Shown here: positions 9,001 through 15,000 of the stretch, in pieces | Numbering within the stretch: the stretch's first letter is position 1 | Layout of the letters: each line of letters begins with the position of its first letter | DNA from: a virus | Taxonomy: Duplodnaviria; Heunggongvirae; Uroviricota; Caudoviricetes | DNA length: 23,053 bases | IMG/VR virus record: IMGVR_UViG_2537562020_000011 | Location: 1 to 23,053 of that record | Reading direction: 5' to 3' (one strand) | Made by a program: the position numbers

Positions 9001-12000
9001 TGCTGACAAACCTGAACCACGTAGCGATGAGTACGCTTCTTGGTGAGCGTGTAATGGACCGCATGGTCATGAACGGTGGTCGCTGGGTGAATTTTAACTG
9101 GGAGAGCTGGCGTTCGAATGTCAGGCACCTGAGGGTTGTGAAGTAATTTTGTCCGGAGGAAATTTTAATGGAAACCGTTTTTGACGCACTGAAAGCAATG
9201 GGAAAAGCCACATCCATAGAACTTGCTGCGCGACTTGATATCAGTCGTGAAGAAGTGCTGAACGAACTATGGGAACTGAAAAAGGCTGGTTTCGTTGATA
9301 AAAGCGCGTACACCTGGCGTGTGGCTGATAACAACGTTCAGCAGGAACAGCCAGCGCAGGCAGAACTGCCGGAAGAAACCTCCACGGCGACAGTAGCGAA
9401 AATCTCAGAGTGCGATTTAACCGCGACGATTGAACAACACGGACCACAAACGGCTGATGAGCTGGCTACATTGTTTGGTACCACATCACGCAAAGTGGCT
9501 TCAACGCTGGCAATGGCAATCAGCAAAGGACGCCTGATTCGTGCAAATCAGGACGGTAAATTTCGTTACTGCATGCCGGGCGATAATTTACCAGCAGAGC
9601 CGAAAGCAGCATCGGTAGCGGAAACTGATGGTAAAGCCTTTCCTCAGCCTGCATGTGTTGCGTTACCAGTACAGGAGGCTGCAACACAGGAAGATATTAA
9701 AACAGAAACTGTGGCGGACATTGTGCAGTCGCTGCCATCGTTTACTGAAACGCGAGCGGATGACCTGGTTTTACCATCGCTGCATATGGCAAACCGCGAA
9801 CTGCGTCGGGCGAAAAGTCATGCCCAGAAGTGGGAACGAGTCTGCGCCGCGCTGCGGGAGCTGAACAAGCACCGGGATATTGTTCGACATATTTTCGATT
9901 CCTCCAGTCATATTGTGTCGGAAAAGTGATTCCTGGGGAGGGCTTATGGCAAAAGTTTTTACACAAGAAGAGCGAGAAAAAATTAAAGGGCAGGTTGTTG
10001 AACTCGTACGCCAGAGTGGGCGTGAGACGTTACGGCAACTGGAAGTCAAGACAGGTGCGACAAGATATCTGATGAGCGTTCTCGCAAGAGAGCTGGTTGC
10101 CAGCGGCGATGTATACAACTCTGGTTACGGGTTATTCCCGTCTGAACAGGCGCGTAAGGACTGGCAAAATGCCCGTAAAAAACTATCAAGGGCAAAGGTG
10201 AAGAAACCGGTTGTGGTTGATCCTGACCTTATCTGGTCATTACCCGACGGAGAAATACGTCGTTACGACAGGCGTCTGAACATAATCTGTCGCGAGTGCC
10301 GGAAGAGTGAGGTTATGCAGCGAGTGCTGGCGTTTTATCAGGGTAATTTTCAGGAGGTGATGGCGTGAGGGTGAGGGTTTATATCGCTGGTCCGATGACC
10401 GGGTATAAAAATTTCAACCGTGAGGCGTTCCACAAGGCGGAAGAGGAACTGAAACGGGAAGGGCATACAGTCTTGAACCCGGCAGTACTTCCGGACGGGC
10501 TGACACAGCCACACTACATGGATATCTGCATGGCGATGATTCGTTGCGTGGATGCGATTTACATGCTGCAAGGCTGGCAGCGGTCAGCAGGCGCTAAAGC
10601 GGAACTGGCTCTGGCGGAGAAGCTAGGGCATGTGGTTGTTTTTCAGAGGGGGCGATATGCCGATTCTCTGGTTTCAGGAGGTGTGGGAAAAAGAAATGTG
10701 GGAAGGTCTTGTGATTGTGGCCGAAACAGTTCTTTTATTATGGTCTGTGATTGCGTGTATTTTTATGATTTATTGTGAATGATGTGAATCTCGCGGTGGC
10801 CACTGAATTGCAACCATTACCCCCTGTGATGTAATTGTGGGGTAATGGTTGCGCAGGCATAGCGACAGGACTGGATGAGAAAAATATGACGAAATTTACC
10901 AGAGAGCAATTGATTGCTCATGCTAATGAAAGTGTGAAATCCATGAAATTTGCTGCGCGACAGACCGTGTTTAAGACTTCAAGAGTTGCCATTGAAATGG
11001 ATCTTGCGCTTGCCCGTATTGCGCTTGCCTCACTTGAAGCAATGCCAGTTGCATGGTCCTGTGCTCACAATATGGTTTTGTTCAATGCTGAATCTGTTGC
11101 GGCATACGCAAAACACTCAGCCATTGCGCCAAAACCCCTGTACGCTGCGCAACCGGCATCACTTTCACATGAGGAAGAGTTGACAATGCTGGTTAAACAA
11201 TTGGTAAGTCAGTTGAAAAAAGCGAAACCAGATTGCAAATTACCGGATATGGCGATGGGGTATCTGGAGCGGAATGGGCTGATAAGCGCGGAGGATGTTT
11301 TACGATGACCTGGCCGGAGGCATTCACAACGACAGGAATTGCAATGGCGGCAGCACTTGTTGTGTATTCGATTTGCCGCTGGGGATAAAAACGGTTTGCA
11401 GTGAAAGGGGAGTTAAGTAGAATTGCTGCGGGTGCTTGAGGCTATCTGCCTCAGGCATGAACACCAAAAGGCAGATAGAGAAAAGCCCCAGTTAACATTA
11501 CGCGTCCTGCAAGACGCTTAACATTAATCTGAGGCTCAATCTATGTCTCACAAATGTAGGTTAGCCTCTTACGTGCCGAAAGGCAAGGAGAAGCAGGCTA
11601 TGAAGCAGCAAAAGGCGATGTTAATCGCCCTTATCGTCATCTGTTTAACCGTCATAGTGACGGCACTGGTAACGAGGAAAGACCTCTGCGAGGTACGAAT
11701 CCGAACCGGCCAGACGGAGGTCGCTGTCTTCACAGCTTACGAACCTGAGGAGTAAGAGACCAGGCGAGGGAGAAATCCCTCGCCACCTCTGATGTGTCAG
11801 GCATCCTCAACGCACCCGCACTTAACCCGCTTCGGCGGGTTTTTCGTCGCATAATGAGGTTGTAATTTTAGCTACCATTAGACTATCCTAAGGATCTCAA
11901 ACAGATCTATTTTGCATCAAATTTGGTGCATGGCTTTGCCAATAATCGGAAAACAAAAGGACTCATTAGTATGAGCTGCCCACTCAAAAAACACACGCGG

Positions 12001-15000
12001 TTGAGTATTCCGCCTCGCGATAAAAGCGTTGTGGCAGTCCCTCGCCCAGCGATTGATGAAAACTGCGCACATCGTGAACAAGTGAAAAATGCTTTTGATT
12101 TCGGTTTTTCTCGTTATGAGAAAGCCATGGAAGAACTTTCAAAAGTGTAATGATGGGTATTGTGCTCTATGGCTGAGATTGTTGAAGGAGTGCATTACCT
12201 TACGGTTGATGATCTTGTTGAAATCAATCGTTCCCTAATTGAATTACAGACGCCAGATGAGCCCGTTGGTGTTCTGAGTCCAGATAACTTAAGTTCTTCT
12301 CAGGCCCGTCCCAGCATGGTTCGATGGTATGAACAGACTAATGACATGTTTGTACTGGCATCGGTATTGATTGAAAGTCTGATTCAGAATCATCCGTTTG
12401 CTAATGCGAACAAACGAACAGCTATGATGGCTGGTTACGTCTTCTTGTTGTTGAATGGCTATGAGTTAACAGCACCAGGCGATGAAATCGTGGAAATGGC
12501 AGAGGGACTGGCCTGCAAAACCTATACTCGAGAAGATCTCGAGAACTGGTTGTGTTATTGGTCTCGCGCGTATGACAGCCGGGAATTATGTAAAACAGGC
12601 GCAACTATTGTTTTGTATGAAACTATCAAGCTTAAAATAGAACAGCAAAACTAAAGGTGCTTCCAATGAAAACCCGCTTCGGCGGGTTTTGTTTTTTCCT
12701 GGCATTCTGGTTTACAATTCGCACGCCAGCCTGAACAACTGGCACCTGCTGCGCCAGCAGAGACAACCGATGGCGCACAAAAACAAATTTCACAATTCTG
12801 ATACCGACCTTGCCATCCGGCACGGGCGGCGTTCACACGCATTTAAAACCGACTGGTACCAACACCCACCATGTACTGAAGAACAGGCCGAATGGCTAAT
12901 TCATAACTACCGCAGGCGCGGATACGAGGTTAAGAAAGCCCTCAGCCTCGATTATCGTCACTGGATAATCTATGTCAGGCTCCCTTATTCCGAACGCCCA
13001 CCGCGTCCGTCCCGCACATTCCAGCAACGCATCTGGAGGTAACGTGCGGGTATTACTTCGACCTGTTCCGGTACCGGAACTTGGGCTGGTGGTGCTAAAA
13101 CCGGGCCGTGAATCCATGCAGGTATTTCATAACCCTCGAGTTCTGGTGGAGCCGGAACCGAAAAGCATGCATGGTCTGCCGTCCGGAGTCGTTCCTGCTG
13201 TTCGCCAGCCGCTGGCGGAGGATAAATCATTACTGCCATTTTTCAGCGATGAGCGGGTGATTCGTGCTGCTGGTGGTGCTGGTGCATTGTCTGACTGGCT
13301 GTTACGCCACGTTAAATCCTGCCAGTGGCCTCATGGTGACTACCATCACAGTGAAACCGTCATACATCGTTACGGTACCGGCGCGATGGTGTTGTGCTGG
13401 CACTGCGACAACCAGCTGCGTAACCAGACTTCCGAATCACTCGGGCAGCTTGCTCACCAAAACCTGTCAGCATGGATGATTGATGTCATCCGCCACGCAA
13501 TGAATGGCACGCAGGAGCGGGAATTATCGCTGGCTGAATTATCCTGGTGGGCAACCATAAATAACGTAGCGGACGCACTACCGGAGACGGTGTTACGTCG
13601 TTCACTGGGATTACGCGCGGAAAAAATTCGCTCAGTATACCGCGAGAGCGACATCGTGCCGGGAGAGCAGACCGCCACCAGCATGCTGAAGCAGCGCACA
13701 AAAAATATTGCGCTACTGCCTCACGCCCACCAGCAAACCCCGCCACAGGAAAAGACGGTGGTAAGCATTGCCGTTGATCCGGAGTCACCGGCTCAGTATC
13801 TCCAGCGCCAGAAACCACGACGGGAAGAGATGCCTGTATACACGCGTTGGGTAAAAACGCAGAAATGCATGACGTGTGGTAATCAGGCAGATGATCCGCA
13901 TCACATCATTGGTCATGGACTGGGAGGGATGGGAACAAAGGCTGATGATTTGTTTGTTATTCCGCTGTGCCGTAAATGCCATAGCGAACTACACGCCGGG
14001 GTAAAAGATTTTGAAGAAAAACACGGCAGCCAGCTGTTGTTGCTGATTCGTTTTTTAATGCACGCGAGAAATTCGGGTGTCCTGAAGTGGAAAGCATGAA
14101 TGACTGAACGCATAGAATTTGTTTTGCCTTACCCGCCAACGGTGAACACTTACTGGCGACGTCGTGGCAGCACATATTTTGTATCAAAAGCCGGTGAGCG
14201 TTATCGCCGTGATGTGGCGCTTATTGTTCGCCAGCAGCGGCTGAAATTAAACCTGTCCGGAAGGCTGGCGATAAAGATTATTGCAGAGCCACCGGATAAA
14301 CGTCGTCGTGACCTGGACAATATCCTGAAAGCACCACTGGATGCGCTGACGCATGCCGGACTTCTCATAGACGACGAGCAGTTTGATGAAATCAATATTG
14401 TGCGCGGTCAGCGCGTTCCTGGGGGGCGGCTGGGCGTGAAGATTTACAAAATTGAGAGTGAGTGATCGTAAATATGATATACCCGGAAATTACAGGCAAA
14501 AGCGGCGAGCATTTACGTCTAAAAACGCTGGAAGCCGTCTGGATCCAGGGGAAATTACGGATGTGGGGGCGTTGGTCGTATATAGGTGGTGGCAAACCAG
14601 GAAATATGTTCAATCAGTTGCTGGCATCCAAAAAACTGACAAAAACCGCAATCAATGAAGCCCTGCGTAGAATCAGGGAGTCAGGGATTGATAAACCAGA
14701 GCTGGAAGCATTCTTGCGAGAGATGATCGCTGGCAGACAGAAGAGCTGGTTGTCTCACTGTACTGATGCAGAGGCGTTACGCATTGATGGGGTGATAAGT
14801 AAAGCGCTTGCACGTTATCCTGGATTGATTGATATCCTGCGGCAAAGGTACGAAGGGCGGGGGATGAGTAAACGCAAAATGGCTGAATTGTTGAATGAGG
14901 TGCACCCGGAATGGTGTTTTAGTACATGCGAAAAGCGAATTGCTAATTGGTTAGCTGTTGCTGAATATGCGCTATACATCCCTATGCGAGAATCGTTTGC

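Follow-up and report, generated by a model that had tools for sequence, protein, structure and literature searches.

Here, we describe a two-gene cassette in the early region of a lambda-like Escherichia coli prophage, contained in a stretch of DNA of 23,053 nt (IMG/VR record IMGVR_UViG_2537562020_000011; the whole stretch is referred to below as the window). The downstream gene encodes a Doc-family Fic protein of 161 amino acids (aa), which is an ordinary and already annotated member of its family. The upstream gene encodes a 59-aa protein that is genuine and strongly constrained, is co-inherited with Doc and belongs to none of the Phd/YefM, AbrB-type or FicA/YhfG families, nor to any other catalogued antitoxin family. 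Genomic association, selection and predicted structure suggest that this small protein is probably the cognate antitoxin, neutralising Doc via direct binding of its C-terminal helix. The two genes would thereby form a type II toxin–antitoxin module, a piece of cargo within the early, nin-like region of a defective prophage. The combination of a widespread, natural, stand-alone and putatively helix-only antitoxin, a conserved unstructured segment and a distinct clade of Doc proteins of about 160 aa is undescribed in the searchable literature.

The toxin is a member of the Doc family

Proteins of the Doc family phosphorylate the elongation factor EF-Tu and stop translation. From its family membership, the protein encoded here would be expected to act in the same way, and we infer both its toxicity and its EF-Tu target on these grounds. 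It matches the DOC_P1 model TIGR01550 at E 1.5e-37 (128.5 bits against a cut-off of 38.65), the Fic/Doc family PF02661 at 46.6 bits (cut-off 24) and, among the PHROGs, the ‘Doc-like toxin’ family phrog_577 at E 1.8e-51; PADLOC returned sub-threshold matches only. The closest solved Doc is PDB chain 9vzc_A (E 4.7e-13), and P1 Doc (3k33_A) is a weak match at E 5.6e-5.

The protein had been assigned to the Doc family in an earlier sequence-only reading of the window, on account of an intact HPFANANKR motif, and the profile matches bear this out. The motif occupies residues 75–83 (nt 12391–12417), and H75, F77, N79, N81, K82 and R83 are invariant among 22 homologues. It fits the Doc motif HxFx(D/N)(A/G)NKR (PMC13034048) and not the AMPylase motif HxFx(D/E)GNGRxxR. 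The same 22 homologues share a conserved C-terminal extension, reaching to approximately residue 141, in which W127, W131, R133, D136 and C141 are invariant; this extension is specific to the present Doc clade and is absent from P1 Doc.

The 59-aa partner is a genuine gene of an uncatalogued family

The small open reading frame (ORF) has the features of a translated gene. A Shine–Dalgarno sequence, AAGGA, is located at 11957–11961, 9 nt before the ATG, and a gap of 18 nt separates the end of the ORF from the ATG of Doc. A Shine–Dalgarno sequence precedes the same ATG in nearly all homologues at 32 loci. A longer, TTG-initiated version of 75 aa starting at 11923 was considered and rejected, as all homologues start at the ATG with the Shine–Dalgarno sequence upstream. 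Comparison of the window with diverged E. coli copies gives 14–16 synonymous and 6–7 non-synonymous changes, a ratio of non-synonymous to synonymous rates (dN/dS) of 0.07–0.09. Constraint extends through the 3′ end of the gene: the last 24 codons carry 6 synonymous and 0 non-synonymous changes within E. coli, and 11–14 synonymous and 1–2 non-synonymous changes relative to Salmonella. Purifying selection on the 59-aa gene is as tight as that on Doc.

The sequence-only reading had held that this product does not resemble Phd/YefM and had proposed a profile search against antitoxin families. The searches agree with that reading: the product has no match in Pfam (E<=1), NCBIfam or PADLOC, PDB matches at E<=10 include no Phd chain, and the structural model contains one helix. 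When 26 members of the family were compared with Pfam, none matched an antitoxin or DNA-binding family, including helix-turn-helix (HTH), ribbon-helix-helix (RHH), AbrB and Phd/YefM. Searches of the PDB by single sequence, by a 26-member profile and with the C-terminal 27-mer found no meaningful relatives at E<=10, returning only chance matches (ribosomal S25, TPPP and Nsp1). The (S/T)xxxE(G/N) sequence is the inhibitory helix motif of FicA/AntF class I Fic antitoxins. This motif is absent from the 59-aa sequence and unconserved in the family alignment, and there is no Pfam match to YhfG.

The protein does belong to a recognisable family, phrog_2208 (E 6.9e-41), which is of unknown function in PHROGs. 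When 1.84 billion representative proteins were searched exhaustively with HMMER, 38 clusters emerged, nearly all of them stand-alone proteins of 47–66 residues. Family alignments reveal two conserved segments, an N-terminal RLxIPPRDK and a near-invariant C-terminal QVKNAFxFGFxRYEKAMEELSKV, joined by a variable linker. A search of the literature found no description of this family, and searches by accession number and PHROG identifier gave nothing.

The two genes are inherited as a pair

A scan with a Doc profile, using one genome per species, identified 33 gammaproteobacterial loci in which Doc is 38–76% identical. In all 33, a member of the small family ends 0–23 nt before Doc. Among the genera represented are Serratia, Yersinia (Y. 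pestis), Providencia, Morganella, Citrobacter, Kluyvera, Hafnia, Xenorhabdus, Arsenophonus, Proteus, Gilliamella, Pseudomonas, Stutzerimonas, Halomonas, Kushneria and Marinobacter. The pair is also found in the Pseudomonas phages Sirocco and LPPA56, where it lies beside the integrase, and in 124 of 5426 complete E. coli genomes, among them O104:H4, O157:H7 strain 2571, O121:H19 and O103:H2. The two genes are therefore conserved as a pair across many genera. Outside this clade, more distant Docs (31–35% identity; Streptococcus, Listeria and Symploca) are preceded by AbrB/SpoVT-type antitoxins of 75–86 aa.

The extent of homology between copies coincides with the two genes. In 29 of 30 sampled E. 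coli rows below ~97% identity, homology to the window sets in exactly at the ATG of the small ORF and stops shortly ahead of the terminator. The pair therefore travels as a single unit, and the DNA upstream of it varies. The divergence of the two proteins is correlated across 29 loci (Mantel r 0.89, p 2e-4).

The neighbourhood of the pair includes other modules of this general kind. In a Salmonella prophage it has a hok gene on one side and ParDE plus VapBC on the other (L005 3496–6009), and in E. coli O104:H4 it lies between hokD and an HTH/RelE-ParE pair (L091 1136–2813). The early region of these prophages gathers toxin–antitoxin modules.

Predicted structure and proposed mode of neutralisation

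The 59-aa protein was modelled as a monomer with AlphaFold2 (AF2) on a 12-sequence family alignment. Residues 1–33 are predicted to lack regular structure and residues 34–57 to form a single helix, with a predicted local distance difference test (pLDDT) score above 90 over the last 20 residues. The model contains no folded N-terminal domain and none of the Phd/YefM, AbrB, RHH or HTH folds; a structure search of the PDB with it gave nothing meaningful, the top match being vimentin at E 8. The putative antitoxin would then have an unstructured N-terminal half, rich in proline, and a single amphipathic helix at the C-terminus, and would lack a folded DNA-binding domain.

Work on other Doc modules provides a precedent for neutralisation by such a helix. 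A 22-residue C-terminal peptide of Phd is an inhibitor of Salmonella Doc that binds with picomolar affinity (PMC9207808), and in the Phd of Enterococcus faecalis residues 52–79 alone contact Doc (PMC13034048). The Phd-C element detached from its Panacea domain neutralises the corresponding Doc when stabilised, and antitoxins made of a neutralisation element alone exist (PMC10440598). The 59-aa partner probably works like the Phd-C element: its C-terminal helix would bind physically in the groove of Doc, as the Phd-C helix of Phd does, and keep the toxin inactive. Both genes are probably co-translated from one mRNA, because the gaps between them are 0–23 nt and they share one downstream terminator. 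To the prophage, the module may serve in stabilisation or in phage exclusion.

The likeness of the C-terminus to known Doc antitoxins takes two forms. Residues F42, F46, Y49, M53 and L56 are spaced as the PhdSTm hot spots F56, M60, H63, L67 and L70, and in both proteins these residues end three residues before the C-terminus. In addition, an hhalign alignment of the last 19 residues to the C-termini of AbrB-type Doc antitoxins keeps the same register (EYDDVFKALVEK versus RYEKAMEELSKV). The likeness is suggestive only, because the spacing is what any amphipathic helix gives and the hhalign match is non-significant (probability 1.9%, P 0.026).

These two cautions are the first of several points that weigh against neutralisation by the helix. 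Sequence searches found no significant similarity between the C-terminus of the 59-aa protein and known Doc antitoxins. A helix-only model assigns no role to the conserved N-terminal RLxIPPRDK motif; the clade-specific C-terminal extension of Doc might be its partner. The AF2 model of Doc itself is of low confidence (pLDDT 60), too poor for a fold search. Pairing is not absolute: on a metagenomic phage contig (L008 859–1286), a 63%-identical small ORF with a nearly invariant C-terminus lacks a Doc and stands directly behind a tail-fibre gene and ahead of an unrelated ORF of 76 aa. This copy may be a remnant, may have a new partner or may serve the phage as an anti-Doc gene. Lastly, Doc is broken beside an intact small ORF at three loci and the reverse occurs at none (table 1), which is the direction expected of a toxin–antitoxin pair and suggests one as a weaker supporting observation, although the excess is non-significant (chance ~0.39 given the gene lengths).

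Some of these points could be read in favour of a different obligatory partnership, in which the small protein might, for example, act as a chaperone or protease adaptor, sense phage infection, or serve as a factor for specificity or activation, and Doc would be non-toxic or differently targeted. The protein has no significant similarity to any antitoxin, the extension of this Doc clade is missing from P1 Doc, the homologue on the metagenomic contig is an orphan, and Fic/Doc proteins are known to vary in activity (PMC10440598). We nevertheless regard such a role as improbable: the small protein bears the textbook marks of a type II antitoxin in its upstream place, tiny gap, small size, disorder-plus-helix architecture and strict co-inheritance, the catalytic motif is that of the kinase-type Doc form and is invariant, and no other conserved candidate for a neutraliser lies beside Doc, where the flanks vary by context.

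The 5′ region and regulation of the module

The cassette begins with 125 nt of non-coding DNA, in which a consensus scan found no sigma-70 promoter on the + strand. An alignment of six cassettes with different upstream DNA retains only two conserved words in this region, ATTAG(A/G)CTA and a segment around TTGGTGCAtGGCTTTGCCA. The window copy of the former is ATTAGACTA at 11877–11885, within which TAGACT is a possible candidate for a −10 element.

Two palindromes in this region deserve separate treatment. The sequence-only reading had offered the inverted repeat GATCT-caaac-AGATC as an autoregulatory operator about 35 nt upstream of the small ORF. The repeat is indeed present, at 11893–11907, but lies 64–78 nt before the ATG, and its proposed function has to be given up: an inverted repeat with arms of 5 bp is expected by arithmetic about once in DNA of such length, so that the repeat is at chance level, and it is unconserved, being absent from the cassettes of E. 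coli SMN013SH2, O104:H4, M19 and O157:H7 strain 2571 and of Salmonella. A second palindrome, TGCATCAAATTTGGTGCA at 11913–11930, has a wider counterpart. In most of 32 loci, a palindrome is found ~35–60 nt before the ATG of the small ORF, its position kept and its sequence unrelated; that of Salmonella, for example, is TGCACTAATTTAGTGCA. Arm changes between relatives are compensatory, and in Gilliamella-type loci the arms differ around TTATTA with complementarity kept. RNAfold predicts the segment from −68 to −19 to be more stable than shuffled sequences (mean z −1.85) and the sense strand to fold more stably than the antisense (Wilcoxon p 0.026), although the loci are not independent and both figures are indicative only. 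Several mismatches in the arms are G.U pairs on the sense strand, and the hairpin lies downstream of TATAAT wherever a TATAAT is obvious. Judged by these patterns, the palindrome may be either an RNA hairpin in the 5′ untranslated region (UTR) or an operator, the former being slightly favoured.

An operator would be required if the 59-aa protein were a conventional autoregulating antitoxin, repressing its operon at 11913–11930 through DNA binding by the RLxIPPRDK arm. The fixed position of the palindrome and its compensatory changes are consistent with this, as are the Providencia and Morganella loci, where a clear TTGACT-TATAAT promoter likewise contains a palindrome. RLxIPPRDK is found family-wide and is loosely like the ‘[LV]xIP’ strand of AbrB-type antitoxins, and the Phd of E. 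faecalis acts through toxin dimerisation (PMC13034048); the arm could perhaps become a beta-ribbon once a Doc dimer joins two copies, which would refine, and not replace, neutralisation by the helix. The AF2 model, however, has no folded N-terminal domain, and the protein matches no DNA-binding family. The motif is nearly invariant and the palindromes are wholly different, unlike a reading head that co-evolves with its operator. Sense-strand stability and the G.U mismatches favour an RNA hairpin, and where a TATAAT is obvious the hairpin is inside the transcript. Autoregulation of this kind is unlikely.

The proposal that the 59-aa protein neutralises Doc through its helix can be extended to a class of Doc modules in which the antitoxin is free of DNA binding and control is exerted at the RNA level. 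In such modules, the 5′UTR hairpin would set expression in place of conditional cooperativity, and RLxIPPRDK would be a second functional element, for example a plug for the active site or the clade-specific C-terminal extension of Doc, or else a degron or a sensor of the trigger, through which Doc is set free upon phage infection. Orphan phage copies, such as that on contig L008, would be candidate anti-Doc counter-defence genes. We put this forward as a speculative scheme, with a low probability of being correct as a whole.

Comparison with known systems

The Phd-Doc modules of P1 and Salmonella Typhimurium share with the present module the toxin family, the HxFx(D/N)(A/G)NKR motif, an antitoxin gene placed upstream and carriage by a temperate phage. 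The 59-aa partner is predicted to act, like theirs, via a C-terminal helix of ~22–25 residues that ends 3 residues past a conserved leucine. Their antitoxin differs, being of 73 aa as opposed to 59 aa, and the partner described here has neither the Phd/YefM fold (PF02604) nor detectable similarity to Phd. The toxin is set apart by its length of 161 aa, its C-terminal extension and its weak similarity to P1 Doc, and P1 is a plasmid prophage, whereas this module resides in an integrated lambdoid prophage.

The Phd-Doc of E. faecalis (PDB 9VZC; PMC13034048) supplies the closest solved Doc. Its antitoxin and the AbrB/SpoVT-type antitoxins of Streptococcus, Listeria and cyanobacteria share with the 59-aa protein the C-terminal pattern F..x..[RE]Yxxx[FML]xxL[AVS]x[KRV]-end. 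All of these other antitoxins are proteins of 75–86 aa with a beta-sheet DNA-binding domain, in contrast to the 59-aa protein, which is without one, and profile–profile similarity between them is non-significant. The PanA(Phd-C):Doc D6 system and the single-domain antitoxins found with NetFlax (PMC10440598) embody the same concept of a Doc-binding helix as a portable linear element, able to function in the absence of a DNA-binding domain. In PanA(Phd-C):Doc D6 the element is fused to a Panacea domain, whereas here it would be natural and stand-alone, placed after a conserved unstructured segment; the 59-aa family is unnamed in the main text of that study.

The cassette as a whole resembles the morons of lambdoid phages in being a small unit that is absent from collinear relatives, bounded by terminators and slightly lower in G+C than its flanks, with a presumed function for the lysogen and not for lytic growth. 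It differs from them in having no confidently identified promoter of its own and in its location, which is the early nin-like region beside hok/sok and not the late operon.

Terminators and the polymorphic site behind hokD

The 20-nt sequence AACCCGCTTCGGCGGGTTTT occurs identically at 11824–11843, as the core of the hokD terminator, and at 12671–12690, behind Doc, as the sequence-only reading had noticed; a direct repeat of this length is far beyond chance in a 1.1-kb stretch. A simple terminator scan scores only the right copy, since the T tract of the left copy is shorter. Rfam matches on the terminators (isrK, rsmX and RydC) were far below gathering scores and were dismissed.

The site between these terminators is polymorphic, and related prophages with and without the cassette, the comparison suggested by the sequence-only reading, were readily found. 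In phage Evi and many E. coli prophages the fixed site behind hokD is empty; the flanks are 253–254 bp apart and enclose one terminator, the tail of which is that of the right copy in the window. Elsewhere the site is otherwise filled. In phages vB_EcoS-689R5 and vB_EcoM-606R7, and in several E. coli genomes, these two terminator copies enclose an unrelated gene for a 130-aa product (table 1). A filling of 545 bp consists of AT-rich DNA in which no gene is annotated, and retains the left copy only; filling lengths of 815, 849 and 919 bp are also on record. The Doc cassette has a G+C content of 43–45%, compared with 48–55% in its flanks. It behaves like a moron that is gained or lost at or next to a terminator, because the site is found either empty with one terminator or filled by a different cassette with the same two copies.

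The 20-nt repeats may be crossover points or may reflect shared ancestry. The sequence-only reading had suggested that they might mediate exchange, for which there is a serious contender: cassettes may be swapped by homologous recombination in the conserved lambdoid genes that flank them, the right terminator being the Doc operon's own and sharing ancestry with that of hokD. The Doc pair and the right terminator occur together throughout the E. coli contexts examined (a six-locus downstream alignment), also where the right flank differs (O104:H4, M19 and O157:H7 strain 2571) or hokD is absent (SMN013SH2); in Salmonella the terminator is degenerate. The AT-rich filling with its left copy alone and the lack of a recombinase or transposase in the cassette also agree with this explanation. 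Against it stand the empty site, whose sole copy of the repeat has the junction within its core, and the cassette of the 130-aa gene, which is bounded by the same two copies. A single-copy empty site together with a two-copy alternative cassette is expected from insertion at, or deletion between, the 20-nt repeats. On balance, we place homologous recombination in the flanks a little short of an even chance.

Two of the alternative fillings merit a further remark. The 130-aa protein is phrog_16082, of unknown function, with a weak N-terminal match to the Cor superinfection-exclusion family. The AT-rich filling is represented at L089 730–1070 by ~300 bp of AT-rich DNA, its right junction lying ~35 nt further downstream.

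Significance

In this clade, Doc is annotated automatically and its partner is annotated as ‘hypothetical protein’; as a result, toxin–antitoxin finders overlook these modules, or they are counted as orphan toxins. Copies are found in E. coli O104:H4, O157:H7, O121, O103 and enterotoxigenic E. coli (ETEC), in Salmonella and Yersinia pestis, and in Pseudomonas phages, and recognition of a helix-only antitoxin family would complete their annotation. The putative antitoxin would also represent a natural minimal inhibitor of Doc, of ~25 residues, which bears on work with Phd-derived peptides, and would offer a test case for the regulation of a type II module without a DNA-binding antitoxin. The hokD site, bounded by terminators and polymorphic, provides a tidy example of cargo exchange in lambdoid prophages. 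Current understanding is not overturned by these observations, since modular, exchangeable neutralisation elements are already recognised in the field; they are mildly provocative for toxin–antitoxin regulation and otherwise a modest variation on a well-known theme.

Prophage context

By gene content, the window is a lambdoid prophage with an integrase at its left end. The repressor gene is followed in order by YdaT, replication genes, DUF4406, hok/sok and the cassette, to the right of which are DUF968, RusA, a Q-like protein, a DNA methylase and two tRNA genes. Past the tRNA genes, a portal gene directly precedes a fusion of Z with the tape-measure protein, and a J fragment is next. The window ORFs of at least 110 aa include none for terminase, head or lysis functions, and the prophage is therefore defective. 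Coordinates are collected in table 1.

Table 1. Features of the window and of related loci discussed in the text. Coordinates are those of the window unless a locus (L) is named.
Feature	Coordinates	Strand	Basis or remark
CI-like repressor	6019–6792		next in order after the integrase
hok/sok type I toxin–antitoxin locus	11430–11755	+	left neighbour of the cassette, outside it
mok/hokD ORF; hok	11543–11755; 11600–11755	+	Pfam HOK_GEF, E 3e-23
Left 20-nt terminator core (hokD terminator), short T tract	11824–11843	+	exact direct repeat
Cassette 5′ region, 125 nt, non-coding	11846–11970	+	six-cassette alignment; palindrome survey and RNAfold of 32 loci
Putative antitoxin, 59 aa	11971–12150	+	phrog_2208; family alignments; dN/dS; AF2
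Doc-family toxin, 161 aa	12169–12654	+	TIGR01550; PF02661; phrog_577; PDB matches
Right terminator, core 12671–12690 and long T tract	12669–12698	+	terminator scan; direct repeat
DNA methylase	15596–16645
tRNA-Met (CAT) and tRNA-Arg (TCT)	within 16695–16944		downstream of Q-like gene and DNA methylase
130-aa-gene cassette	L003 1700–2092; L004 1699–2091; L088 800–1192		left terminator copy partly degraded
Doc frameshifted, Proteus penneri	L034 2477–2955
Doc frameshifted, Arsenophonus nasoniae	L036 2486–2942
Doc C-terminally truncated, second Gilliamella copy	L032 2486–2887

The left neighbour of the cassette includes a sok RNA at 11430–11605 (Rfam RF01794, 121.6 bits); the name hokD is that of the annotation in identical E. 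coli DNA. The cassette is 100% identical to DNA in ETEC chromosomes, such as that of O6:H16 strain 2014EL-1346-6, in which PGAP labels the two products ‘hypothetical protein’ and ‘type II toxin-antitoxin system death-on-curing family toxin’. Identification of the window with the ompW prophage of that strain was rejected, as the cassettes are 100% identical but the sequences diverge downstream.

Three further observations concern the surrounding genes. The late region at 17617–22613 is heavily deleted, consisting of a lambda-type portal, an 824-aa ORF in which the N-terminus of minor tail protein Z is joined to the tape-measure protein, and a J fragment. The DUF4406 ORF at 10365–10778 has a divergent C-terminal tail, and the identical region in RefSeq is flagged as an incomplete pseudogene. 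A 63-aa antisense ORF (12632–12823, − strand) overlaps the right terminator and crosses the mosaic junction; RefSeq copies label it ‘hypothetical protein’, and it looks spurious.

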